The notes: generated by a model from the sequence alone, not told the origin. A stretch of DNA of 64,000 bases from Candidatus Yanofskybacteria bacterium (GCA_016181175.1 JACOZV010000001.1:259519-323518); one strand, 5' to 3'; shown: positions 5,671 through 52,561, counted from the stretch's first letter. Numbers and translations: made by a program.

Positions 5671-5831
5671 AAATTTTTGAAATAATAGATATCGCTAGAG
5701 ATCCTTTCGTGATTTCTTAAAAGTGTCTTTGGTATCGGCTTGGGGTTTGTAATTTTTGCACCCTTGACACATCGCAAATTCATATGCTAACCTATTACAA
5801 TATTAGTAACTTTAAAAATCGGGGGTTTTAA

Positions 5832-7125: not shown

Positions 7126-7334
7126 AGGCCATTATGCCTCATAGCACCGTCAAAAGAGTGGATTGTCCCGATTCTGCTTTGCAGAATCGAGGATCCTCGA
7201 TTTTCATGAATGAAAATCGGGACATGGTTTGCGAGCAGTATAATATTTCCTCACTGCGAGCAAAATCCACGCTTTTGACGGAATGTAGAATTCTCGCTGG
7301 GAATTCAAATGGTGATAGGAGGTATAATGGCGAG
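7126..7334 (-). repeat. family-1 TIR/stem element, copy with internal palindromic insertion, followed by tandem partial duplication (7328-7387)
   Basis: reverse complement of 28019-28168 over both ends (ccattatgcctc..tcacc..ccagcgag..ccgtcaaaag.gtggatt). Confidence 0.7.
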
Positions 7335-7462
7335 CTAGTTTTTGAAATTACCAAAAGGCACTATGGCGAGCTGGTTTTTGAATTTGATAAAAATAGTGAT
7401 TCGTGCTATTTTCAATAACAAGTTTTTTAAAAATTAAATTATAGCCGGAGAGGAGGTGGAAT

Positions 7463-9160: not shown

Positions 9161-9475
9161 GGGTTGACCCCGCACCTTTTCAGCACAATAATCACAGCAT
9201 GCACTGGTTATACATAATTAAAAGTAAGGAAAATGGAGAATTATATATCGGCAGCACAGGAAATTTAGTGAAAAGACTGGCCGAACATAATACTGGCAAA
9301 TCTAGAGCTACGACCAGATATAAACCATGGTTTTTTGTTTATATTGAAGGCTATTTTTCTAAGGATGATGCCTTGCATCGCGAACGGAATCTGAAATACT
9401 TTGGCAAAGTCTATGCCCAATTAAAAAGACGTATTAAAAATAGCCTTCAGGGTGCTGAAAAGGTGCGGGGTTGAC
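9161..9475 (+). mobile_element. family-2 inverted-repeat element enclosing a GIY-YIG nuclease ORF
   Basis: ggttgaccccgcaccttttcagcac ... gtgctgaaaaggtgcggggttgac flank the ORF exactly. Confidence 0.6.
9199..9474 (+). CDS. GIY-YIG nuclease family protein (YhbQ/UPF0213-like)
   Basis: 91 aa; YIGSTGNL...RLAEHN GIY-YIG core. Confidence 0.75.
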   Translation: MHWLYIIKSKENGELYIGSTGNLVKRLAEHNTGKSRATTRYKPWFFVYIEGYFSKDDALHRERNLKYFGKVYAQLKRRIKNSLQGAEKVRG

Positions 9476-17927: not shown

Positions 17928-17934
17928 TTCTAAA

Positions 17935-18094
17935 AGCTTGGCAAATACTGCCTTCTATCACCGCTAGCAACCCCAGCGAGATTGCGTCGCTCCGTTGAAA
18001 GCGTGGATTCGCCTCGCAGTTCAACCATTATACTGCTCGGTGACCGTGCAATCCACCCTTTCAACGGTGCTATAAAGCAGTATTTGCCAAGCTT
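17935..18094 (+). repeat. family-1 TIR/stem element
   Basis: aagcttggcaaatactgc...gcagtatttgccaagctt termini; internal tatcacc, cccagcgag, ccgttgaaagcgtggatt / aatccaccctttcaacgg. Confidence 0.75.
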
Positions 18095-18147
18095 TTAGAC
18101 TTGACATGTAATGTGTCCGCATATTAAATTTTATATTACTTAATGCC

Positions 18148-22548: not shown

Positions 22549-22689
22549 CTAACGGGATGAATCCCGAACGAGACAGCCTTTGCCAACAACAAGGAAGGGT
22601 TACGATGGCTATCTAAACGGGATTAATAAAGTATTTTTAATAGGCACGGAAATGATTTACTCAATAAATCATTTCCTGTCTCGTACGGG
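22549..22689 (+). repeat. family-3 element: gaatcccgaacgagacag / ctgtctcgtacggg arms with internal hairpin, ending at start codon
   Basis: near-identical copy at 30285-30377 (opposite strand). Confidence 0.75.
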
Positions 22690-23652
22690 ATGAGACGATA
22701 CCTATTTTTATTAATTCAGATTGTTGTCAGCGCGATGCTGGTTTTTTTTATTTTTCAAAATATTCATTTCGGTGACCTCTCGGGAGCGTTTAAGAACGTG
22801 CAGATAGAATATATTTTTATTGCTTTGGTGTTTTCCATTCCCGCGTGGCTTGTGGGTATTTTCAAATGGCAATTCCTGGCCAAAACCATCGTGGACAAAA
22901 CCCCGCCTTTTAGATTTTTTATTTCATACTATCTTGTGGGATATTTCTACGCTTTATTTGTGCCAGGCGGCCAACTTCTAGGCGAAGGAATGAAGGCTTG
23001 GAGGATGTCTAACAAGTCAGAATTCAAACCCCAGTTGTATTTATCGGTTTTTGCCGATAAGGCCATAGGTTTTATGGCTCTAGGCTGTCTGGTTTTAATA
23101 TCTTTTTTGACACAGCCTGTTTTATACGGCGACAGATTGAGTATTTTGAGTCTCGCGGTAAGTGCCGCCATTGTGCTGGCCGGTATTATGATTTTCTTCA
23201 GTCGCGTTTTGCTGGAATACTTTTATAAGGTTCCTGAATTTTTAGTCAAATTTTTGCCGTTATTTATAGCCGGCCACGTCGCCATTTTAAAGGGACTTCT
23301 CATTAAATACAATCAGCGCAGAAAATCTACTCTTATAGGTATCGGAATCGGAGCCATTGCACAGCTTATATGGGTTTTGGTTATATATTTTATTGCCCTC
23401 TCATTTAATCTCCATGTACCATTTTTATTTATTGCCTGGACTTTTTTGATAATGTCTGTAGCCACTTTTCTGCCGGTATCCTATGCCGGCTTGGGAGTGA
23501 GAGAGGGAACGTTTGTCTATTTTTTTTCGTTGTTGGGCGTATCCCGTGAGCTAGCCTTAAGCATATCGCTTATGCTATTCGGTTTTCAGGTGCTGGCTGC
23601 TTTAATCGGGGGAGGTTTTGAATTAAAAGAATTATGGAGTAGAATAAAATAA
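22690..23652 (+). CDS. polytopic membrane protein, flippase-like / lysylphosphatidylglycerol-synthase-TM-region (UPF0104) family
   Basis: 320 aa, ~8 TM helices. Confidence 0.5.
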   Translation: MRRYLFLLIQIVVSAMLVFFIFQNIHFGDLSGAFKNVQIEYIFIALVFSIPAWLVGIFKWQFLAKTIVDKTPPFRFFISYYLVGYFYALFVPGGQLLGEGMKAWRMSNKSEFKPQLYLSVFADKAIGFMALGCLVLISFLTQPVLYGDRLSILSLAVSAAIVLAGIMIFFSRVLLEYFYKVPEFLVKFLPLFIAGHVAILKGLLIKYNQRRKSTLIGIGIGAIAQLIWVLVIYFIALSFNLHVPFLFIAWTFLIMSVATFLPVSYAGLGVREGTFVYFFSLLGVSRELALSISLMLFGFQVLAALIGGGFELKELWSRIK

Positions 23653-23658
23653 AATCAC

Positions 23659-25956
23659 ATGCGCGAGCTATTACTAGTCAAAATCACTAAATATTTAGTT
23701 TATGCCACGGCCTTTGTGCCGTTGATTATATTCTCGCAATTCATATCGCCATTCCATTTCGGCAAAGTGGTGGTTTTTCGTTCGCTTGTGGAGATAATGG
23801 CCGTTTTTTATTTTATTCTGATCATCAAAGACAGAGGTTATTTTCCCAAAAAGCATATACTTCTGACAATTTTCTCTCTTTTCACGCTGATTTTTGTCAT
23901 TTCAACTTTTATCAGCGTCAACCCTTATCTAAGTTTTTGGGGTTCGCTTGAACGTATGGGCGGACTCTGGAGTTTTATCCATTATCTTGTCTATTTCATA
24001 ATTCTTATTTCCATATTCAAGACCCGCGAGGACTGGCTGCGGTTGTTTAAGATAGTTATTTTTGTCGGAGCTCTTTCCGCGTTTTATGGTTTTGGCCAAA
24101 AGACAAATATTGAATTTTTCATAGGTTCTGGGAAACGCGAGAGGATATTTGGCACTATCGGCAATGCCGCTCTGTTTGCTGGTTATCAGATTATAATTTT
24201 ATTCCTTGCTTTGTCTTTGGCTCTTTCTTCTTGGGTATCGACTAAACACAGAGGTTATTTTTTTACCGCCGCTCTTATAAACACAGTTGCTGTTTTAATG
24301 ACTGCCGTTAGGGGTTCTATATTGGGTGTTGGCGTAGGTTTTTTACTTTTTGCTTTCCTTTACACTATTTCTTCTCATTCGCGTACGGCAAAAAAGATTT
24401 TATTGGGCTTGGTCGGTTTGGCTGTTATTTTTGTCGGGTTTGCTTTTGCTTTCAAAACCTCCAATTTTGTAAAAAGTTCCGGTTACTTGACGCGTTTGAC
24501 TGATTTTTCATTCCAGACGCTTACGGTTCAAACTCGTTTTTGGGCTTGGCGAGCTGGGTTAACCGGCTGGGTGGAGACACCAAAAACAATTTTATTCGGC
24601 TGGGGTCCGGAAAACTTTAATGTCCCTTTTTCCAAGCATTTTAATCCCAAGTTTTTCCGCGGTATTGGTTCTGAAACTCTTTTTGACCGTGCCCATAATC
24701 AGTTCGTTGAGATTTTAGTAACAATGGGCGCATTGGCATTTCTGCTCTATATAGCCCTGTTTGCTGTAGCCATGCGTTTGTTGTGGAAACGCGTAGTGCA
24801 AAACGGAAAAGAAAGGGCGATTGGTGTGGGTTTGATATCTTTAATTACCGCATATATTATTCACAATTCATTCATATTTGACACCTCGGCTAATTTTATA
24901 ATATTTTTTACGGTTTTAGGTTTTATTGCATGGTTGACCCCGCACCTTTCTGCGGCAGGTAACATGGGCTTGCGCGAAGCGCAGCCGCAGAAAGGTGCGG
25001 GGCAAGCCCCCATTACCAGTTACCAGTTACCAGTTACCAGTTATAAATTAACCGTCGGTCAACAAACCCTATTGTTTCTTTTGCTGATTGGCGCGGCAGT
25101 CCTGATTTATCGGACGAATATCACGCAGTCCAAGGCTAATTACACAACCACACGTGCCATTGTTAGAAGTTGGTCTGGGGATTTTGATGGTGCTTTGGCT
25201 AAGTATAAAGAAGCGTTGGCTTACGATATACCCGGCAAATATGAGTATCGCCACCGTTTTGCCCAGTGGCTTCTTGAATATGCAAATGGCAAAAAACGGG
25301 GAGAAAAAGAAGAGGCCGCTTTGACGTATGCCATACAGCAAGTGCAGAAAAATGCTGATGAGTCTAATCAGGACTATTTACCATATCTTTACATTTCGCG
25401 TGCCTATATAATTTTAGGCAAAGACGATCTGAAATCGCCGTATAACGACGAAGCATTAAAAAATTCTATGAAAGCATTGGAAATTTCTCCAAGTTTTGTA
25501 AGAGCGTATTACGAAGTAGCGCAGGCTTTTCTAAATAAAAAAGATTATAGCAATGCTATAAAATATTTTGAGCAGGCAGTTAAATTAAACCCCGATGTTG
25601 GTTTGAGCCATTGGTACTTGGGGGCAATCCTAATAGAAACGGGCGATATCGAGGGGGGATTAAAGGCGGTTAGCAGAGCCACTGAACTGGGTTATATGCT
25701 TTCCGAATCCGATACCTTAAGACTGATCAACCTTTACATTAAAACCGGCGATCTTAACAAAATAACTTTCCTTTTTGAGAGATTGATTAGTATAAAGCCC
25801 AATAACCCGCAATATCGTGCTTCGTTGGCGGCAGGTTATGCAAAAATCGGAAAAATAGATGAAGCAGTTGAACAGGCACGTGCCGCTGCTCAACTAGACA
25901 AAACTTTTGAAAGTGAAGCTCGTTCGTTTGTGCGGAGTTTGGGCAGGGAGTGGTAA
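23659..25956 (+). CDS. O-antigen ligase/polymerase (Wzy_C)-like membrane protein with C-terminal TPR repeats; carries in-frame repeat insertion
   Basis: multi-TM N-terminal domain, TPR-like C-terminal; palindrome + heptamer repeat at 24942-25043 inside CDS. Confidence 0.6.
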   Translation: MRELLLVKITKYLVYATAFVPLIIFSQFISPFHFGKVVVFRSLVEIMAVFYFILIIKDRGYFPKKHILLTIFSLFTLIFVISTFISVNPYLSFWGSLERMGGLWSFIHYLVYFIILISIFKTREDWLRLFKIVIFVGALSAFYGFGQKTNIEFFIGSGKRERIFGTIGNAALFAGYQIIILFLALSLALSSWVSTKHRGYFFTAALINTVAVLMTAVRGSILGVGVGFLLFAFLYTISSHSRTAKKILLGLVGLAVIFVGFAFAFKTSNFVKSSGYLTRLTDFSFQTLTVQTRFWAWRAGLTGWVETPKTILFGWGPENFNVPFSKHFNPKFFRGIGSETLFDRAHNQFVEILVTMGALAFLLYIALFAVAMRLLWKRVVQNGKERAIGVGLISLITAYIIHNSFIFDTSANFIIFFTVLGFIAWLTPHLSAAGNMGLREAQPQKGAGQAPITSYQLPVTSYKLTVGQQTLLFLLLIGAAVLIYRTNITQSKANYTTTRAIVRSWSGDFDGALAKYKEALAYDIPGKYEYRHRFAQWLLEYANGKKRGEKEEAALTYAIQQVQKNADESNQDYLPYLYISRAYIILGKDDLKSPYNDEALKNSMKALEISPSFVRAYYEVAQAFLNKKDYSNAIKYFEQAVKLNPDVGLSHWYLGAILIETGDIEGGLKAVSRATELGYMLSESDTLRLINLYIKTGDLNKITFLFERLISIKPNNPQYRASLAAGYAKIGKIDEAVEQARAAAQLDKTFESEARSFVRSLGREW
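24942..25003 (+). repeat. family-2 inverted repeat (ggttgaccccgcacctttctgcggc...gccgcagaaaggtgcgggg) inside CDS, in frame
   Basis: same arms as 9161/9455. Confidence 0.75.
25014..25043 (+). repeat. heptamer tandem repeat (accagtt)x4
   Basis: direct reading; related heptamers at 47691-47768. Confidence 0.8.
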
Positions 25957-28018: not shown

Positions 28019-28168
28019 GCTCGCCATTATGCCTCCTATCACCATTTGAATTCCCAGCGAGAATTCTACATTCCGTCAAAAGCGTGGATTTTGCTCGCAG
28101 TGTTTTACTATTATACTGCTCGCAAACCGTGCAATCCACTCTTTTGACGGTGCTATGAGGCATAATGC
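28019..28168 (+). repeat. family-1 TIR/stem element
   Basis: ctcgccattatgcctcctatcacc...cccagcgag...ccgtcaaaagcgtggatt...aatccactcttttgacggtgctatgaggcataatgc. Confidence 0.75.
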
Positions 28169-28661: not shown

Positions 28662-28949
28662 TTTAATCTCCTATTTTTAAAAAACTAGTTTAAAACAGCA
28701 TAGCATAAATAGTGATATGTTGTCAAATTTTTGCTATGTTTCAGAATGCTTTCTCAAAAATTAAAAAACCTAAGCCGTCAACAGACGGCGGTTTTTATCA
28801 CTCCCATAATTGTTAAGGAGAGGATGTCAGTTTCCGGCGCAGGCGGACCCTTTTTGTGAAAAATCCCAGCAGGGTGGATTGAACAAAAAGGGTCCGCGGA
28901 GCCGGAAGATAAACTATTATGCTACCTTATTTTAATTTTTGAGGTCTAA

Positions 28950-30284
28950 CTAGCGGAATGCTTTTTTTAAGAGGATATTTATTGTTTTAAGTAAAATTCC
29001 CAGGTCTAAGATCAATGACCTGTTTTTTATGTAAAACAAATCATGCTGGAGTTTTTCATACGTATCTTTGATGGTCATGCCGCCGCGGAAGTCCAGCTTA
29101 TATTTGATTTGCGCCCAACCGGTCAGTCCCGGCTTGACCAAGTAGCGTTCTTCGTAAAAAGGGATTTCAGATTTTAATTTCTGGTGGAACTCGGGTCTTT
29201 CCGGGCGAGGCCCAACAAATGACATTTCGCCGCGCAATATGTTCCAAATTTGCGGTAGTTCGTCAATTCTTGTTTTGCGCAAAAACTTGCCGACTCGCGT
29301 AGTTCGAGCATCATTTTCAGCGGCCCAAATCGGACCCGTACTTTTTTCAATCTCCTGAAACATTGTCCTGAACTTTATTACGGTGAAAATTTTGCCGATT
29401 CGTCCCATTCGTCCTTGGTGATAGAAAACTTGACCACGCGAATCAAGTTTTATAGCTAAGATTATCAAGGGATAAAACGGCAGGGTCAGCAGCCCTATGA
29501 TTATGGTGCCGATTAAATCTAAAATTCTTTTTCCAGTTTCGTATCCGCGTCGGCTACCCTGAGAGAGGTTTTCCAAAAACCAAACCTGATCTATAGTTTC
29601 CAGTGGTATTCTTCCGGCAACTCGTTCATAAAAATCGGACAAGTTGAAAAAATTTATCCCAAAACCTACCAGGTGGTAAAACACGTCTATTATGTGCGGT
29701 ATCTTATAAACCGTCGGAGCCAGAACCAATGTCCGGATATTTTTTCTCTTAATCAGGTTGTCTAAAATTGCAGAAGCGGTTTTATCTCCAATATCAAGTA
29801 TGCCTAAGACGCCGTATCCCAGTTGTGGATTATTCAACAAAAAGTCGTAAAGCTCTTGAGATTGTTGACTCAAGCCGACTATTAATGTATTATTTTTGTA
29901 GCCGTTTTTGGCGGTGAGCCGATTAAAGAAAAAGCGCCAAAATCCTTGTAAGGCTGCAATAATGACAATAAAAACAAATAAGTTGGTTTTGGGGGCGATT
30001 CTAAAAAACTGGACAAAATAGAAGAAAAAAATAGAGATAGACGAAATAACGGCAATTGTATAAAAAAGATCGGAAAAAAAGCGGGCGTTATTTTTAGAAA
30101 GACCTATTTCATACAGATTGGAAATATAAAAAACTATTACCCAAACAACAAAAATAATGGTGAACGGTAGAAAGTGCATGCTGATCTGCTCGTCAAAACT
30201 ACGCCCATACCTTGCATAGAGGGTCAAAAAAAGCGCTAGATATAGGGTAATAATGTCGCCCAAGAAGAGTAAAAATTTACGCAT
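28950..30284 (-). CDS. polyprenyl-phosphate sugar phosphotransferase (bacterial sugar transferase, WbaP/PglC-like)
   Basis: C-terminal [25 protein letters not shown]; N-terminal TM helices; start moved to ATG abutting family-3 repeat. Confidence 0.8.
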
Positions 30285-30377
30285 CCCGTACGAGACAGGA
30301 AATGATTTATCTGAGTAAATCATTTCCGTGCCCATTTAATCTACTTTATTAATCCCGCCTAGATAACCATCGTAACC
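30285..30377 (-). repeat. family-3 element copy (lacks left arm), abuts sugar-transferase start
   Basis: ~90% identical to 22592-22689. Confidence 0.75.
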
Positions 30378-30391
30378 ATTTCGGTATTGGA

Positions 30392-31345
30392 ATGGTGGGG
30401 GAACCGATTAAAAGGTGGTTTGAAGAAAACCAAAAATATAGACGCGGAAAGGAACTGTTTTGTTACGATGCCGATCCCAAAAAGGGTTATAGCGATGACG
30501 TTAATTTGGCTGATATTATTTTTGTTGCCGTACCGACACCAACAAATCCTGATGGTAGCTGTAATGTTTCTATTGTACAAAGCGTTACCTCAACAATTAA
30601 TGACGGTAAGATCGTGATTATTAAATCTACAGTGCCGCCGGGGACAGTGGAGGGGCTGCAAAAGAAATATCCTAGCAAGAAGTTTGTTTTTAATCCGGAA
30701 TTTTTAACCGAGTCACAAGCTTGGCTTGATTTTATAAAGCCAAGCCGTCAGATTCTTGGCCACACAGCCCGAAGCTATGCTGACGTAAAAGAAATTATGG
30801 CTTTGCTTCCTCAAGCGCATTTTGAGCGCCCCTGGGCGAGTGATTATAGCAAGAAAGATATCAACGCTACCGAAGCGGAACTTGCCAAATATGCCAGCAA
30901 CGTTTTTGGCTATATCAAGGTAATTTATGGCAATATTTTAGCTGATCTGTGCCATGCTCTCGCAGTCAATTTTAAAAACAATAAAATAAATTCGGAAGTT
31001 ACCTACGAAAATATAAAAGAAGTTATTTCTGCAGATCCCAGAATCGGCCCGGCATGGCTCAATGTGGAGCATGGCAATTATTGCGGAGCCGGCGGATATT
31101 GTTTTCCCAAGGATATGAACGCCCTGATAAGTTTTGCAGAAAGTTTGGTTAAAGACTTGTCCAAGAATAAAAAGAACTTGGATTTGGTCACTTCTTTAAA
31201 AAAGGGTGTAGCTGTTTTAAGGGCTGTTACGGATTACAATAAGTCAATTCTTAATTTGCAGGGATTAACCATTGAAGATGTCTCGCGTCACGATAAAGAA
31301 ATTATTACGCTAAAACGCAAGCCGATACGAGTTAGAAAATCATAA
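30392..31345 (+). pseudogene. UDP-glucose/GDP-mannose dehydrogenase family protein lacking N-terminal ~45 aa (GxGxxG NAD-binding turn)
   Basis: begins at the GEPI...EPGL-equivalent region; ADIIFVAVPTP and catalytic-domain C motifs present; the missing 5' region is occupied by family-3 repeat and divergent gene. Confidence 0.5.
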
Positions 31346-35498: not shown

Positions 35499-35531
35499 TT
35501 CAATTTGTTTATTTTGTGATAAATTATAGGG

Positions 35532-35690
35532 GCTTAGCGAATAATACCTTCTATCACCATTTGTCGCCCCAGCGAGGCGACTGCATTCCGTCAAAAATAT
35601 TAATTTTGATTTTGTTGAAGAAATATTGTAACAAAATCAAACCATGCAATTAACACTTTTGACGGTGCTATAAGGTATTATTCGCTAAGC
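35532..35690 (+). repeat. family-1 TIR/stem element
   Basis: gcttagcgaataatacc...ggtattattcgctaagc termini; tatcacc, ccccagcgag, ccgtcaaaa / ttttgacggtgctata. Confidence 0.75.
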
Positions 35691-35700
35691 CCGTTCATAT

Positions 35701-39107: not shown

Positions 39108-39167
39108 CTGATTTTAAGCCGCTTTCATGTTTAAAATTAACTGTTAATATTAATAGAGTCAACCCCG

Positions 39168-39240
39168 TTAGAAGTCTCGCTCGTGCCTAATGGCACGAGT
39201 CCGAAGGACATCGGCGAGGCCACTTCTAACGGGGTCAACC
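39168..39240. repeat. family-2 inverted repeat, ORF-less (gtcaaccccgttagaagt...acttctaacggggtcaacc)
   Basis: arms share gttgaccccg core with 9161 element. Confidence 0.7.
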
Positions 39241-39724: not shown

Positions 39725-39847
39725 GAATCCCGAACGAGACAGCTAATTTTTACCTTGCTAAATAATTGCCGTGTTATTAGTTGTCATTTATGGCGGGATT
39801 ACTTATAATCAACGGAAATGCATAAAGCATTTCCTGTCTCGTACGGG
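39725..39847 (+). repeat. family-3 element spanning the whole intergenic spacer (arm after stop, arm before ATG)
   Basis: gaatcccgaacgagacagc ... ggaaatgcataaagcatttcctgtctcgtacggg-ATG. Confidence 0.75.
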
Positions 39848-40408
39848 ATGAATATTCAAAAAGTAATTTCGGAGACGAGAGATATATTTCTCAAGTCGGA
39901 CGTGTCTTTACCGCTTTTGCTTAAAATAAAAACCACCGAGCTGGTTTTGAATCTTATGGCCCATCAAAAAAATTTTGGTCTTTTTATAATACTTGGCTGG
40001 CAGGATAAATGGCAGGAATATACGGATATTTCTGATGCCGCTCAGGATATTTTTGTTGCTCACCGCATAAACCTGAACGATATAGAAAATCACTCTGATT
40101 GGTATCTTGAGGTGGAGTCTACGGTTGGTTTTGACGGTGCTATCCTGATAGATGGTAACGGCGTGATACAACACTCCGGCGTTATATTGGAAGGTTTGCG
40201 TCCCCGAATGGTTGCCGACGCGATAAATCCGGGTCAGTTCAAGGACTTGTCAGAACAGTTTGGTTTCAAGCAAAAAGTCCATTCAAGACATCTTTTTGCC
40301 ATTACTTCTTCTCATGTTTTTAAAAATACCGCCGTTTTTACTGTTTCTGAAGAGAACAACACTTTCCACATTTTTGAAGCCGGAAAGATTGTTTACTCAA
40401 CAGACTGA
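39848..40408 (+). CDS. hypothetical protein, possible DisA_N/diadenylate-cyclase-like domain (tentative)
   Basis: FDGAILIDGNGVI...RHLFAIT weakly resembles DAC DGA/RHR motifs. Confidence 0.3.
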   Translation: MNIQKVISETRDIFLKSDVSLPLLLKIKTTELVLNLMAHQKNFGLFIILGWQDKWQEYTDISDAAQDIFVAHRINLNDIENHSDWYLEVESTVGFDGAILIDGNGVIQHSGVILEGLRPRMVADAINPGQFKDLSEQFGFKQKVHSRHLFAITSSHVFKNTAVFTVSEENNTFHIFEAGKIVYSTD

Positions 40409-43689: not shown

Positions 43690-43778
43690 TGTTTATATTA
43701 AAACAAGAAAAAAATCAGCTTATGCTGATTTTTTGGTGACTTGATTTTTAAATAATAGTATTTTACTATCAAATTTAA

Positions 43779-43891
43779 TCCCGTTAGAAGTCGCCCTAAC
43801 GGGTTCGCGGTCATAATTAGCAAATAATTTAAAGTCTTATTGTTTAGCCGTAACTTATGTATAAGGCTACACAGTAGCGACTTCTAACGGG
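43779..43891. repeat. family-2-related inverted repeat, ORF-less (cccgttagaagtcgc ... gcgacttctaacggg)
   Basis: arms share ccgttagaagt with 39168 copy. Confidence 0.65.
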
Positions 43892-43895
43892 ACAA

Positions 43896-45287
43896 GTGTT
43901 ACGTAGATTTACTCCATTGATAATTTTAGCCGTTGCTCTGTTTTTGGGCGTTTTTGCTTATCCTCAAGGTTGGGATATGGGCGCGGACATAGTAAATTCA
44001 AAACTCAAAATCCAAAATTCAAAATATAAGATTCCACGTATGTTTAAAATTCCGCCATTTCGTCTTGGTCTTGACCTGTTGGGCGGTACCCACTTAGTTT
44101 ATCAAGCCGATTTGTCTGGAACCGAGGGTCAAAGCGCTGGTGACGCTATGTCTGGTGTGCGTGACGTTATCGAGCGCAGAGTTAATCTTTTTGGCGTTGC
44201 AGAACCGTTGGTGCAAATTGAAGGCAACGATCGTCTTGTGGTGGAATTGGCCGGCATCAAAGATGTAAATCAGGCAATACAGATGATTGGTCAGACGCCA
44301 TTTTTGGAATTCAAAGAAGAACGTCCGTCAGAAGAGTCGCAAAAAATTATTGAAGCCCAACAAAAAGGTTCATCCAGCACCAGTTTGGACAGCCCCGAAC
44401 TGGTGCTGGACAAGCAACAGTTTGAAGATCCGTATTTTAAGCCAACCGGTTTAACCGGTCGATATCTTAAGCGTTCCCAATTGACATTTGATCAGACAAC
44501 ATCACAACCGGAGGTTTCGCTGGAATTAAACGACGACGGAGCAAAATTATTTGCTGAAATTACAAAGCGAAATATTGGGAAGCGTGTTGCAATTTATGTT
44601 GACGGCGTGGGCATAAGCGCACCGACGGTTCAAAGCGAAATTCCAAGCGGTCGTGCCGTGATCAGTGGCAGTTTTTCCATAAAAGAAGCCAGGGATTTAG
44701 TTAACAATCTTAATGCCGGGGCACTGCCGGTACCGATAAATTTAATTTCACAACAGACGGTGGGCCCTTCTTTGGGGCAGGAATCACTGCAAAAATCATT
44801 GACGGCCGGCTTATACGGATTGCTTGCGGTAGCCATTTTCATGATATTGTTTTACCGTTTGCCCGGCCTTGTGTCAGTTGTCGCTTTGTTGGTGTATGTT
44901 GCAATTGTTCTGACTGTCTATAAAGTAATTCCGGTAACGCTGACTTTGGCCGGAATAGCAGGTTTTATATTGTCTTTGGGTATGGCTGTGGATGCCAATA
45001 TTTTGATTTTTGCCAGAATGCGCGAAGAGTTAAAGGCTGGCAATTCTTTAGCACAGTCATTTGCAAGCGGTTTCCACCGAGCTTGGTACTCAATCCGTGA
45101 CAGTCACGTTACAACTTTGCTCGGCGCTTTTGTGCTGTATGCTTTTTCAACATCTGTGGTTAGGGGATTTGCTTTGACGCTTGGAATCGGAGTTTTGGCA
45201 AGTTTGTTTACGGCCATTGTTATTACTAAATCATTTTTAAGGTTGTTTATTGGACACAAAATGGAGAAAACAAAGTGGATGTTTTAA
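43896..45287 (+). CDS. secD: protein-export membrane protein SecD
   Basis: 463 aa; N-terminal TM, periplasmic domain, C-terminal 6-TM RND-like block. Confidence 0.9.
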   Translation: MLRRFTPLIILAVALFLGVFAYPQGWDMGADIVNSKLKIQNSKYKIPRMFKIPPFRLGLDLLGGTHLVYQADLSGTEGQSAGDAMSGVRDVIERRVNLFGVAEPLVQIEGNDRLVVELAGIKDVNQAIQMIGQTPFLEFKEERPSEESQKIIEAQQKGSSSTSLDSPELVLDKQQFEDPYFKPTGLTGRYLKRSQLTFDQTTSQPEVSLELNDDGAKLFAEITKRNIGKRVAIYVDGVGISAPTVQSEIPSGRAVISGSFSIKEARDLVNNLNAGALPVPINLISQQTVGPSLGQESLQKSLTAGLYGLLAVAIFMILFYRLPGLVSVVALLVYVAIVLTVYKVIPVTLTLAGIAGFILSLGMAVDANILIFARMREELKAGNSLAQSFASGFHRAWYSIRDSHVTTLLGAFVLYAFSTSVVRGFALTLGIGVLASLFTAIVITKSFLRLFIGHKMEKTKWMF

Positions 45288-45291
45288 ATAT

Positions 45292-45570
45292 GAATCCCAA
45301 ACGAGACAGCAAAACCATGTTTTATACATATGTTTTAAGAAATAAAAAAAGCCGCTTTTATGTTGGTTTTACTTATGATTTACGGAAACGCTTCAATGAA
45401 CATAATAATAAAAAATCAACTTATACAAAATATCGTGGCCCATACGAACTTATTTACTATGAAGCTTGTCTTGATGAGAATGACGCTCGTTAAAGAGAAA
45501 AGTATTTTAAATCTGGAACAGGTAAACGCTACTTCAAAAACAGATTGAAGCGTTTCCTGTCTCGTACTGG
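45292..45570 (+). mobile_element. family-3 arms enclosing a GIY-YIG ORF, inserted between secD and secF
   Basis: gaatcccaaacgagacagc after secD stop; ttcctgtctcgtactgg immediately before secF ATG. Confidence 0.6.
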
Positions 45571-45571
45571 A
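45317..45571 (+). pseudogene. GIY-YIG nuclease (YhbQ-like) interrupted by in-frame TAA at codon 59; would otherwise end ATGA-overlapped with secF
   Basis: FYTYVLRNKKSRFYVGFTYDLRKRFNEHN...YELIYYEACLDENDAR-stop-REKYFKSGTGKRYFKNRLKRFL. Confidence 0.6.
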
Positions 45572-46461
45572 TGAAACCCATATATACAATTATGTTTTTT
45601 ATTTCCATGGCGCTGACTGTCGCGGCCGTTATTTTGGTGGCAGTTTTTGGTTTGCGTTTTGGGGTAGATTTCAAGGGCGGCTCTTTACTGGAAATTGCCT
45701 TTGTTAATCCTCGTCCATCAACCGGAGAAATACAAAATATTATAAGCGGGATTGACGGTGTCAAAAACATAAATGTAAATCCGGTGGGTGACAACGGTGC
45801 TTTAATAAGGCTAAATGATATCAATGAGCAGACTCATCAAGATATTTTAACTAAGATTTCCGGAAGTTTTGGTGAGATAATGGAAAATCGCTTTGATTCC
45901 ATAGGTCCTGTAGTCGGCAATGAGTTGAGAGATAAGAGCGTTAAGGCAATAGTAATTTTATTAATAGCTATAATTATTTATCTCGCTTTTGTTTTTAGGA
46001 AAATTTCACGCGTTCTTTCCTCTTGGGCTATGGGTTTAGCTGCCATTGTTGCGCTGGTTCATGATGTTATTATACCCGTTGGCGTTTTTGCGTTACTTGG
46101 GCATTATTATGGAATTGAGATTACGGCAATTTTTGTGGCGGCCGCATTAACTATTTTGGGGTATTCGCTTTCTGACTCCGTTGTTATTTTTGATAGAGTA
46201 AGAGAAAACGTGCTTCGTTTGGGCATTTCTCATCAAAGTTTCGGAGCACTTGTCCACAAAAGTGTCTTACAAACCCTGGTCCGTTCCATTAATACGACCC
46301 TCACAACGCTATTTTCTCTGATTGTGATTTACTTTTTTGGAGGAGAATCAATAAAATACTTTTCTTTAGCCCTAATTATAGGTATTTTTTCAGGCGCTTA
46401 TTCTTCAATTTTTGTTGCTTCTCCGATTCTAGTTTGGCTTAGCAATCGACGCAAGAGTTAA
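45571..46461 (+). CDS. secF: protein-export membrane protein SecF
   Basis: 296 aa, 6-TM SecF pattern. Confidence 0.9.
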   Translation: MKPIYTIMFFISMALTVAAVILVAVFGLRFGVDFKGGSLLEIAFVNPRPSTGEIQNIISGIDGVKNINVNPVGDNGALIRLNDINEQTHQDILTKISGSFGEIMENRFDSIGPVVGNELRDKSVKAIVILLIAIIIYLAFVFRKISRVLSSWAMGLAAIVALVHDVIIPVGVFALLGHYYGIEITAIFVAAALTILGYSLSDSVVIFDRVRENVLRLGISHQSFGALVHKSVLQTLVRSINTTLTTLFSLIVIYFFGGESIKYFSLALIIGIFSGAYSSIFVASPILVWLSNRRKS

Positions 46462-47684: not shown

Positions 47685-47690
47685 ATGCTT

Positions 47691-47768
47691 CCAGTAAACG
47701 GTAATCAGTAACCAGTAATCAGTAATTTATTTTTTGATTTTTCCAGTTACCAGTTACGAGTTACTAAT
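47691..47768. repeat. inverted arrays of agtaacc/agtaatc heptamers around a T-run
   Basis: taatcagtaaccagtaatcagtaat ... ccagttaccagttacgagttactaat. Confidence 0.7.
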
Positions 47769-47779
47769 TACTTTGTATT

Positions 47780-50828: not shown

Positions 50829-51077
50829 GCAAACCCTGGAGTTACATCAAAAATTACAAATTTAATTAGCAAAAAAGATTATTTGCCGGCTACGCGCACG
50901 TGTTTTGCTGGCCCTCTTGGACAGGCGCAAAACGCGCGCGCCTCCGCCGGTAAGTAACATCCTCTGCTTAGCAATTATGGGAGTGATAAAAACCGCCGAT
51001 TGGTATCGGCTTTTGTTTTGTAATTTTTGATGATAGCAATTTGATTTTTTGTATTTTTTGATATTTAATCAAAGGTA

Positions 51078-52364
51078 ATGGCTACTCATAAATGGATTCC
51101 GTGGCCGGGCATAGGACAGGTGGACAAGGGGAGCATCTCTCCGGTTGTAGACAATCATTTTTTCCGACGTTTGAGCGATAAGCGCCAGCTCGCTTTCAGT
51201 TACTTGGTTTTTCCCGGGGCGACACATGACCGCCGTCAGCATTCAATGGGCGCTTACATTAAAACTTGCGAGTTTACCGCGCGGATGGTTGAGCGCGGTT
51301 TTTTAACCAAAAAACAAGCCTTGAACCTCGGCCTTTACGCACTGTTACACGATATCGGCCACGGTCCCTTTTCTCATATTATAGAACCGTTTACCAAGAT
51401 TAACCACAAGGAATACGGCCTTAAGATTGTGGATAGGATGACGGATGATATTAAAAAATGCGGCGGTGATATTAAGCTGATAAAAAGCTATATGAAAAAA
51501 AAGGATCCGGCTTGGCGGATAGTCAGCGATAAGAATTTTGGCATGGAAAAAATGGATTACCTGGTTCGCGATCAAGAAGCGACAGAATTCGGCCCTAATA
51601 TACGTCGCTGTGTGGAGAGCGTTTTTAACCATTTGGAATATAAAAACGGCAGTCTTACGGTTGATTTAAAAGCGTTGGATGCGGCTATTGAAATACAGAG
51701 AGCTTACATCTATTTTTACAGAAACGTTCATCTGGAGAAAAGCGCCTATTTAATCCAGCGTTTTATGCAGAAGCTGATGTACAGATTACTCAATACGCCC
51801 AAAAAACTCGGTGGGATTACCGAAGACGAGCTGTGGGAGATGGTAGACGGCGACTTGATTCATGCTTTGAAAAAATGCCGTGACGAGACCGTCAGAAATG
51901 GCATAGCGATTTTTGATAACGGTGTGCGCCATTTTCCAAAGACTGCTTTGGCAATCCGTTTAACAGGATATAAGTGGCTTGAACGGCGCGCTGGCAAGCA
52001 GATAAAGGTTGTTGAAGCTGATAAGAAATTTTTTGATAAGTTTTTTGTAAAATCCAGCGCCGCCGATTTGGAAAAAATAGAAACAGCAATTGCCAAATTG
52101 TTGGGCATAGAAAGTTGGAAAATGGCCGTAAGCCATATAGTGGAGAAAAACCGCTTTATTCCAGAGGATATTTTATTTTTTGACGGACCGAAAACTTATT
52201 CATTAAAACAGCAAGATCCGAGTTATTTTGAACTTCTTGAAAAAGAATTGGATAAATATTTGTGTGTCAGGGTCTGCGTGGTGCCTGAACATCGCCAGGC
52301 GCTATATTCCAAATGGAAAGAAGTTTTTGATCTTGTTTGCAAATATGTTGGTCATAAACCATAA
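51078..52364 (+). CDS. HD-domain phosphohydrolase (dGTPase/SAMHD1-like)
   Basis: H...HD...LLHDIGHGPFSH. Confidence 0.7.
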   Translation: MATHKWIPWPGIGQVDKGSISPVVDNHFFRRLSDKRQLAFSYLVFPGATHDRRQHSMGAYIKTCEFTARMVERGFLTKKQALNLGLYALLHDIGHGPFSHIIEPFTKINHKEYGLKIVDRMTDDIKKCGGDIKLIKSYMKKKDPAWRIVSDKNFGMEKMDYLVRDQEATEFGPNIRRCVESVFNHLEYKNGSLTVDLKALDAAIEIQRAYIYFYRNVHLEKSAYLIQRFMQKLMYRLLNTPKKLGGITEDELWEMVDGDLIHALKKCRDETVRNGIAIFDNGVRHFPKTALAIRLTGYKWLERRAGKQIKVVEADKKFFDKFFVKSSAADLEKIETAIAKLLGIESWKMAVSHIVEKNRFIPEDILFFDGPKTYSLKQQDPSYFELLEKELDKYLCVRVCVVPEHRQALYSKWKEVFDLVCKYVGHKP

Positions 52365-52398
52365 AACCGGCTTAAGCCGGTTTTATGGTTTATGAGGG

Positions 52399-52447
52399 TC
52401 CGTCCACCAGGAATCGAACCTGGAACCTTCTCCTTAAAAGGGAGCTG
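52399..52447 (-). repeat. duplicated 3' half (anticodon stem to 3' end) of tRNA-Lys, not a complete tRNA
   Basis: 49 nt identical to 52489-52537 region of the full gene. Confidence 0.8.
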
Positions 52448-52488
52448 TCCTGGTTTTGTAAACAAAATCGAGGATTCTCGATACAAAG

Positions 52489-52561
52489 TCCGTCCACCAG
52501 GAATCGAACCTGGAACCTTCTCCTTAAAAGGGAGCTGCTCTACCAATTGAGCTATGGACGG
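52489..52561 (-). tRNA. tRNA-Lys (anticodon UUU)
   Basis: manual fold: acceptor CCGTCCA/TGGACGG, U8, D-loop AATTGGTA, anticodon loop CUUUUAA, T-loop TTCGATT. Confidence 0.75.

Follow-up and report, generated by a model that had tools for sequence, protein, structure and literature searches.

The secD and secF genes of a Candidatus Yanofskybacteria MAG are separated by what is very probably a small selfish element, recently inactivated, that inserted at the secF start codon. We analysed the 64-kb stretch of this MAG that contains the two genes (hereafter, the window). The element, El3, is 279 bp long and contains an interrupted ORF for a GIY-YIG nuclease, terminal inverted repeats that can pair as a stem (P1), and a subterminal inverted repeat that can pair as a second stem (P2). 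Its extent rests on related full copies with the same termini and on empty sites in relatives. The features of the locus are as follows.

43896-45287, plus strand: secD, the upstream host gene (TIGR01129, 406 bits)
45290-45293, plus strand: left flank ATGA, the ancestral secF start-codon context
45294-45572, plus strand: El3, decaying element of 279 bp, ATCCCA... to ...CTGGAT
45294-45309, plus strand: 5' terminal inverted repeat of El3, 5' strand of stem P1, ATCCCAAACGAGACAG
45317-45574, plus strand: GIY-YIG nuclease ORF, 85 codons and TGA (Pfam PF01541)
45371-45385, plus strand: box ACTTATGATTTACGG, codons T-Y-D-L-R
45384-45397, plus strand: 5' strand of stem P2, GGAAACGCTTCAAT, codons R-K-R-F-N
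45491-45493, plus strand: in-frame TAA at codon 59 of the GIY-YIG ORF, the sole stop inside the frame
45544-45557, plus strand: 3' strand of stem P2, ATTGAAGCGTTTCC, codons L-K-R-F-L
45557-45572, plus strand: 3' terminal inverted repeat of El3, 3' strand of stem P1, CTGTCTCGTACTGGAT, codons L-S-R-T-G
45571-46461, plus strand: secF (TIGR00966, 262 bits)

The secD product has 463 aa, with a TAA stop at 45285-45287, and the secF product has 296 aa, with an N-terminus (MKPIYTIMF) that aligns with MKNIYKIMF of the related locus L095. Exact-sequence look-up returned no record for the window SecF or for P0241. The spacer between the two genes is 283 bp (45288-45570) and holds GAATCCCAAACGAGACAGC at 45292-45310 and TTCCTGTCTCGTACTGG at 45554-45570, the latter fused to the secF ATG. 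This ATG consists of the final AT of El3 and a G of the flank, and the GA dinucleotides at 45292-45293 and 45573-45574 are the left and right copies of a 2-bp duplication. The nuclease ORF starts with the ATG at 45317 and stops with the TGA at 45572-45574, which overlaps the secF ATG as ATGA; of this stop codon, the T belongs to the element and the GA to the flank. An upstream in-frame ATG at 45290 opens a 94-codon reading of the same ORF, in which the 5' arm is read as codons MNPKRDS, and many homologues are called as 94 aa, starting from the equivalent of this ATG. At the other end, the 3' arm provides the C-terminal codons FLSRTG.

The two arms of El3 (45294-45313 with 45553-45572) are 80% complementary over 20 nt, and their predicted pairing has a z of -3.7. 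Both recur in the window, with six occurrences of the 3' arm against 0.07 expected and three of the 5' arm against 0.00 expected. These counts bear out the initial annotation, which had described complementary arms here and assigned them to a repeat family. It had missed P2, which in El3 is a perfect 14-bp inverted repeat whose 3' strand is contiguous with the 3' terminal repeat. Each terminal repeat carries a single substitution, G to A at 45299 in the 5' repeat, compared with the family form ATCCCGAACGAGACAG, and G to T at 45568 in the 3' repeat.

With the stop codon masked, the ORF scores 54.8 bits against PF01541 (cut-off 22.6), which agrees with the earlier description of a GIY-YIG ORF that carries a single in-frame TAA and overlaps secF by ATGA. 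The same description gave codon 59 as K/R in the intact paralogue of the window, which is incorrect: the paralogue has His, and in the alignment of the 27 closest homologues about 20 have CAA (Gln), with Ser, Arg or Ala in the remainder. The TAA falls in helix alpha-2, two codons ahead of a near-invariant catalytic Glu, and the frame 3' of it is intact and agrees with the family consensus. A base-call error, which the initial annotation had wished to exclude, is unlikely because a second assembly (contig L094 of Logan SRR12113383, which may derive from the same sample as the window) has the same TAA and is identical over the common stretch, and because the arms carry two further degenerative substitutions. 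Stop-codon reassignment was rejected, as secD is terminated by TAA. Given a change from CAA to TAA before the catalytic Glu and one substitution in each arm, sequence comparison indicates that El3 is a recently inactivated copy, a young pseudogene rather than a functional gene; its decay appears recent because the remainder of the frame still fits the consensus.

It is hardly credible that the ORF is instead a normal, intact host gene for a UPF0213-type repair nuclease, with the TAA being an error or read through and the flanks being terminator-like. UPF0213 genes are ordinary single-copy genes in many bacteria, and an intact, consensus-matching frame beyond the TAA would suit such a gene. However, the identical TAA is found in the second assembly, TAA is the working stop of secD, both arms are degenerate compared with El1 and El2 (two shorter copies in the window, see below) and with copies in other genomes, eight copies or remnants lie within 64 kb, and the stems are not followed by a U-tract.

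The nuclease family is under purifying selection, with a dN/dS of ~0.11 over 21 unique ungapped coding sequences. The nearest homologues share up to 88% identity, are called as 85 or 94 aa, and come from Yanofsky-, Giovannoni- and other Parcubacteria. The catalytic set of the superfamily comprises the two Tyr of GIY and YIG, an Arg, a His and the Glu of helix alpha-2; in the family, Y5, Y15, G17, R25 and H29 are invariant, and E61 is nearly invariant. The El3 product lacks E61 and cannot be active, as the TAA at codon 59 truncates it earlier. The AlphaFold2 model of the 86%-identical homologue P0005 (pLDDT 84.8) contains the elements E2-9, E14-19, H22-30, E43-51, H54-65 and H67-84, which make up a beta-beta-alpha-beta-alpha core and a long basic C-terminal helix. 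Foldseek matched this model to the UPF0213 protein 1zg2 (E = 1.6e-4) and to Slx1 7cq3 (rmsd 2.2 Å over 72 columns); the nearest solved structures are the UPF0213 proteins 1zg2 and 1ywl and Slx1, a branched-DNA nuclease. The protein is a single domain of 85 residues, with no evident DNA-binding module able to read the 14-bp repeats. No NCBIfam model matches the El3 ORF; TIGR01453 has no match in El3 and matches the paralogue at 9199-9474 weakly (22.8 bits, cut-off 56). Transposases of the DDE, HUH, Ser and Tyr classes are absent from the element, the GIY-YIG ORF being its sole ORF, and 279 bp leaves no room for a second gene. We take the GIY-YIG protein to be the putative mobilising enzyme because no other ORF is under selection.

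Comparison with relatives indicates that El3 is an insertion and not an ancestral spacer. The initial annotation had proposed an insert between secD and secF, and the orthologous junctions compared for empty sites lack it: secD is followed by secF ATGAAA after 4 nt in L095 and after 49 nt in L096, in relatives that are only 75-77% identical in the flanking proteins (SecF). Removal of 45294-45574 from the window leaves TTTTAAAT-ATGAAACCC, a junction of the same kind as in the relatives. The predicted empty junctions are TAAATATGAAACCC at secDF and AGTTAATAATGAATATT at El2, and the empty-site sequence inferred for the target duplex is TTTTAAATATGAAACCC. L153 and L155 likewise lack an insert at the El2 junction, where the two flanking genes abut, and the orthologous site in L096 lacks a 116-bp element that lies upstream of secD in the window. 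No filled/empty polymorphic pair was found among the fetched loci.

The window holds eight copies or remnants of such elements. Elements of the window other than El3 are listed below.

9167-9471, plus strand: intact full-length element of a second family, with an ORF at 9199-9474
22561-22691, plus strand: El1, 131-bp ORF-less derivative with arms and P2 hairpin
30283-30391, minus strand: El4, partial copy with P2 and 3' repeat, interior 88% identical to El1
39727-39849, plus strand: El2, 123-bp ORF-less derivative with consensus-form arms
43778-43893, plus strand: 116-bp short element of a sister sub-family, arms ATCCCGTTAGAAGTCGC / GCGACTTCTAACGGGAC

The arms of El1 and El2 are of consensus form, each pair with one internal A-A mismatch, and they stay at the family consensus while the interiors decay. 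El1 runs directly into the ATG of a lysyl-phosphatidylglycerol-synthase-like gene (22690-23652), and an element remnant adjoins it in tandem on the left. El2 has a cytidylyltransferase-like gene on one side and a DAC-like gene (ATG 39848) on the other. El4 likewise runs into a start codon, that of a sugar-transferase gene (28950-30284, minus strand; ATG), and has lost its 5' arm, along with the N-terminus of the adjacent UDP-glucose dehydrogenase gene. The 116-bp sister element stops 2 nt before the secD GTG. The terminal inverted repeat of the second-family element is perfect over 20 bp (ACCCCGCACC.../...GGTGCGGGGT), the element is flanked by a TG duplication, and its ORF encodes a GIY-YIG protein of 91 aa (68.6 bits against PF01541).

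About 140 related copies were found in other Patescibacteria (80 genome loci and 59 metagenome matches), and copies outside the window genome have more than 100 distinct flanks. Full elements are about 279-282 bp, with a range of 276-284 bp counted from ATCCCG to CGGGAT, and have terminal inverted repeats of 14-16 bp (ATCCCG...CGGGAT, stem P1), and almost all copies at the 80 genome loci have the form ATGA-ATCCCG...CGGGAT-GA. The flank consensus is ATGA on the left, each position of which is met in 47-61 of the 80 copies, and GAA on the right. A 2-bp flanking direct repeat, usually GA within ATGA/A, is present in 45 of the 80 copies; 23-35 of them have no clean 2-bp repeat, and some have repeats of 1, 3 or 4 bp. 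When the right flank is other than GA, it matches the left flank in 6 of 23 copies compared with 1.4 expected (GG twice, GT, TA, AA and TT), and the metagenome copies L111 and L146 add GG and GGC duplications. A 4-bp (ATGA) duplication was rejected in favour of one of 2 bp, because the two outermost bases at either end of ACCCCG...CGGGGT copies are complementary to one another and unlike the flank. The tandem copies at L020, L022, L051 and El1 show that the target is regenerated on insertion.

All copies are oriented in the same way as the host gene. In 62 of 85 copies, the last two bases of the element and the first base of the flank make the host ATG, which is rebuilt because the element ends in AT and the duplicated flank supplies the G. 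Of the 64 copies in which ATG or GTG stands here, 58 have an ORF of 60 codons or more starting from it, against 0 and 5 for the two control frames. The nuclease stop codon is the final T of the element and the flanking GA in 59 of the 85 copies. With GG, GC or GT as the flank, the nuclease ORF reads on for 2-3 codons and the host ATG is still rebuilt. The nuclease stop codon therefore lies outside the element, and both this stop and the G of the host ATG are derived from the target. Gene starts make up ~7.5% of the ATGAA sites in the window compared with ~70% of the insertions, so selection against within-gene insertions must aid the survival of insertions at start codons.

The two arms change together across lineages, as in the pairs GAACGAGACAG/CTGTCTCGTAC, GTTAGAGAT/ATCTCTAAC, GTACGAAAT/ATTTCGTAC and GTTAGAGCCAG/CTGGCTCTAAC. 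Over 73 full copies, P1 is 92-100% Watson-Crick paired at positions 2-14 and covaries at six positions (2, 8, 9, 12, 13 and 14), and its mismatches are few in number. Over 95 full copies, P2 is at least 88% Watson-Crick paired at positions 1-10 and covaries at synonymous third codon positions on both strands, with pair counts of AT 67 / GC 16, CG 74 / TA 8, and TA 38 / CG 31. For El3, El1, El2 and copies from metagenomes, the predicted minimum-free-energy fold consists of P1 and P2, and z lies between -3.7 and -7.4. These patterns of sequence change indicate that both stems are under selection. Mismatches of P2 in full copies are G:T in 35 cases and A:C in 33; being equally frequent, they show no sense-strand bias and speak neither for RNA nor for one of the DNA strands.

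Several other identities of the repeats or routes of transfer were considered. Rfam 15, at gathering thresholds and over the whole window, matched a tRNA only, and permissive Rfam scans of El3 and El1 gave sub-threshold chance matches or none; a known RNA family, ribozyme or group I intron was rejected for lack of a credible match. Phage carriage was rejected, as no relative was found among the viral contigs of IMG/VR. An integron attC reading was also set aside, since the arms, by inspection, depart from the consensus of attC core sites.

A metagenome scan with the window-type 3' arm gave the 59 matches mentioned above. Their lengths are bimodal, with 17 copies of 279-280 bp that contain the ORF, 22 copies of 119-137 bp that do not, and a few of intermediate length, and short copies are about as common as full ones. 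The short copies keep the 5' arm, the T-Y-D-L-R box (as CTTAtAaGATACGG, immediately 5' of P2), the P2 hairpin and the 3' arm; they are full elements minus the P2 loop. Short sub-families recur at different loci. In 23 short copies, 98.4% of the base-pair cells are paired, and both partners have changed in six of the eight P2 pairs. Covariation in the short copies scores 0.27 compared with 0.085 for shuffles, none of 500 shuffles reaches it, and slid registers give 0.054 at most. The frame is open to the ATGA overlap in 13 of 18 full window-type copies. An open coupling frame to ATGA is found in 6 of the 23 short copies, from two sub-families, and translational coupling through ORF-less copies was therefore rejected as a general rule. 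Anti-SD duplex energies to the left of the element were about those of random positions, and control genes scored weakly too.

As a rival reading, the stems could act mainly in host mRNA, where a loop-out or an RNase III-type site would permit expression of the downstream gene (secF), and the arms would be kept by host-level selection and not for mobility. We regard this as unlikely. The minimum-free-energy folds made of P1 and P2 (z -3.7 to -7.4), the consensus arms and decaying interiors of El1 and El2, and the orientation of every copy with its host gene are all in line with such a function. So are the P1 5' arms of the short copies, in which all seven single-side changes that keep a pair give G:U (G:U 7 against A:C 0), a difference that is not significant (~0.1, an estimate). 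There is also a precedent in the Correia elements, MITEs whose repeats are cut by RNase III in transcripts (PMC2649163, PMC10969869), and these are the nearest MITE counterpart for possible RNA-level effects. However, a function in mRNA does not explain why copies are scattered over more than 100 sites, and it accounts for neither the 2-bp duplications nor the tandem copies nor the locus-crossing short sub-families. P2 of full copies has no G:U excess, and part of the rebuilt AUG lies within P1. Moreover, it is compatible with a mobile element and is no true alternative to one. The initial annotation had proposed that the arms pair in the secDF transcript and loop out the insert. From the predicted folding, such a loop-out of RNA is plausible, but the arms are not a device specific to the secDF transcript: they are the terminal inverted repeats of a probable mobile element, which occupies more than 100 further sites in other genomes.

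Under the mobile-element explanation that we prefer, the nuclease would cut ATGA(A) sites with the 2-nt 3' stagger that is typical of GIY-YIG enzymes (PMC2761285), and host repair or ligation would then install a copy, leaving 2 nt duplicated. P1 and P2 would be cis-acting signals that work as folded single-stranded or branched nucleic acid. Action in cis may explain why ORF-less derivatives of 120-135 bp, with P1 and P2 alone, have multiplied, and a folded or branched structure would suit an SLX1-like enzyme, since branched DNA is the substrate of SLX1. Translation of intact copies could start at the ancestral ATG on the left and run across the nuclease ORF, and the ATGA overlap would re-couple the host gene.

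We tentatively extend this explanation to a proposal that we hold to be a real possibility, somewhat short of probable. These elements may represent a new class of autonomous prokaryotic transposable element, which at ~280 bp would be the smallest known, with an 85-residue SLX1-like GIY-YIG nuclease as the "transposase". The element would be recognised as a folded branched structure, with P1 stacked on P2, and not by its sequence. Cuts with a 2-nt stagger would allow restriction-enzyme-like cut-and-join or cut-and-copy movement between ATGA sites, and through evolution the ends would have become able to restore the start codon of the host while taking a translation start and a stop from the target.

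Phage T4 offers a comparison for a GIY-YIG gene lodged between other genes. The Seg proteins of T4 are far larger than the El3 product and carry DNA-binding domains. It is very unlikely that the El3 ORF is an ordinary free-standing homing endonuclease gene of this type, acting at its cognate site only, with repeats that are incidental. As with segA-G (PMC2988022), which are free-standing homing genes of this fold, a selfish GIY-YIG gene lies between two conserved genes and is present or absent among relatives, and a 2-nt 3' staggered cut is expected in common (PMC2761285). In contrast, each seg gene has one homing site and lacks terminal repeats, duplications and MITEs. Here, the protein has 85 residues without a DNA-binding domain, TIGR01453 is unmatched by El3 and weak in the paralogue (22.8 against 56), and the element has been found beside unrelated genes at over 100 sites. 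Homing genes have no counterpart to its covarying terminal repeats, its 2-bp duplication or its MITE-like derivatives, and no copy was found in viral contigs.

The best sequence and fold matches of the nuclease are the UPF0213/COG2827 proteins (BH0048 1zg2 and EF2693 1ywl) and the SLX1 domain, which have a similar size and the same beta-beta-alpha-beta-alpha core. They differ in being encoded by host genes that are not reported as mobile, and the identity is 23-35% only.

Insertion sequences and MITEs with short target duplications (such as IS630/Tc1-mariner, with TA duplication, and Correia/CREE of Neisseria) share several features with the element: terminal repeats, a 2-bp duplication, many dispersed copies, plentiful ORF-less derivatives of 100-150 bp beside genes, and repeats able to fold in transcripts. 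The smallest known insertion sequences are ~600-700 bp, whereas the full element is ~280 bp. Its sole ORF is a GIY-YIG nuclease and not a DDE, HUH, serine or tyrosine transposase, it targets ATGA(A) on start codons and rebuilds the start codon, and it adds P2, a covarying subterminal stem.

In REP/BIME with RAYT (REP-associated tyrosine transposase) and in IS200/IS605, a nuclease gene is flanked by palindromic units that are also scattered without a gene in intergenic regions. These systems likewise rely on hairpins over long sequence motifs. They differ in using HUH/Y1 chemistry without target duplication, and their hairpins are local, whereas the two ends of the present element pair with each other. 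The T4 mobE / gene 60 bypass cassette and the split ribosome-binding sites of genes 25 and 38 are examples of tolerated inserts associated with mobile nucleases. As in mobE/gene 60, a structured insert in or before a coding sequence would be crossed by translation. Unlike gene 60, there is no evidence of bypassing here, and coupling through the ATGA overlap is simpler for intact copies. No description of such an element was found in the open-access literature searched (GIY-YIG, UPF0213, Patescibacteria, MITE) or in Rfam, and the family is apparently undescribed.

We know of no insertion-sequence family that uses the GIY-YIG nuclease fold. If the role assigned to the nuclease is correct, Patescibacteria carry a widespread transposon-like family built on this fold, whose members are not even half as long as the smallest known insertion sequences and have MITE derivatives of their own. 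Their start-codon lifestyle would be an economical one, in which the target gives the element its start and stop codons and the host regains its ATG. Such a family would also explain the abundance of tiny "GIY-YIG / excinuclease ABC C subunit" ORFs in these genomes, the disagreement of gene callers over 85-aa and 94-aa products, and the listing of GIY-YIG genes with those that Patescibacteria appear to have donated (PMC12455944). For biochemistry, the family offers a very small, possibly structure-guided nuclease, and for annotation it is a warning that short structured inserts may lie between many gene pairs. In the window itself, secD and secF would be separated by a dead mobile element and not by a regulatory device. 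The El3 copy is dead, and its interest lies in the family that it reveals.

The main family (mini GIY-YIG mobile elements with ATCCCG...CGGGAT ends) includes partial, tandem and nested copies, and copies with ACCCCG...CGGGGT ends. Within the window, El4 is a partial copy (30283-30391, minus strand) that retains P2 and the 3' repeat and lacks the 5' arm. In the adjoining UDP-glucose dehydrogenase-like ORF (30392-31345), the match to the Pfam N-terminal domain does not begin until position 70 of the profile, and this N-terminal truncation coincides exactly with the place where the 5' arm of El4 is missing, which suggests that both were lost in one deletion. In other genomes, tandem or nested copies are found at loci L020 (2128-2418), L022, L051, L128 and L119. 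In the tandem arrangement, the right flank of one element is ATGAATCCCG of the next, and L119 is a short copy of 193 bp that holds a second arm pair inside. Copies with ACCCCG...CGGGGT ends (L057, L062, L066, L073, L075, L084, L087 and L090) come from bins labeled Planctomycetota, Syntrophales, Omnitrophota, Scalinduaceae and Thermodesulfobacteriota, so that the family has either been transferred horizontally to lineages outside Patescibacteria or entered these bins as contamination.

The window also contains features outside both GIY-YIG families:

7130-7335, 17929-18099, 28019-28167 and 35530-35692: palindromic repeat family of ~170 bp, four intergenic copies
28754-28856 with 50928-51030: inverted repeat pair, 103 nt, 83%, intergenic
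5729-5758, 24323-24352 and 51000-51029: direct repeats, 30 nt, intergenic
52488-52561, minus strand: tRNA-Lys(ttt)

The ~170-bp family is unrelated to the GIY-YIG elements and is probably another MITE. None of its copies contains an ORF, and the two with both arms resolved have terminal inverted repeats of 29-35 nt (for example TCTAAAAGCTTGGCAAATACTGCCTTCTATCACCG in copy 17929-18099). The inverted pair and the direct repeats belong to neither element family. The 3' part of the tRNA-Lys gene is duplicated perfectly over 50 nt at 52398-52447, 90 nt from the tRNA, and this duplicate adjoins a perfect palindrome of 22+22 nt (52352-52395). An element that once integrated here may have left this arrangement as its scar.

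The second GIY-YIG family is represented by one full-length element and one mini copy, and a further mini element resembles the full-length one in its flanks:

9167-9471: full-length intact GIY-YIG element, ORF 9199-9474
24937-25003: second-family mini copy, 67 bp, ACCCCGCACCTTTC...GAAAGGTGCGGGGC
39162-39235: mini element, 74 bp, ACCCCGTTAGAAGT...ACTTCTAACGGGGT

The 67-bp copy lies within an open ORF of 765 codons (23659-25956), between its Wzy_C and TPR domains. TTACCAG heptamer repeats (24999-25057) follow this copy directly, and similar heptamers are found at 47688-47770. The 74-bp element, which overlaps the first ATG of a cytidylyltransferase-like ORF, has perfect 14-bp arms and an internal hairpin.

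The terminal inverted repeat of the full-length element is perfect over 20 bp (ACCCCGCACCTTTTCAGCAC / GTGCTGAAAAGGTGCGGGGT). The element is flanked as GGTTG|...|TGACT, with a duplicated TG that restores TTGAC, a -35-like hexamer, at either end. These junctions suggest the same logic as in the main family, applied to a different target. The 74-bp element, read on the minus strand, has the same kind of flanks (GGGTTG|...|TGACTC).
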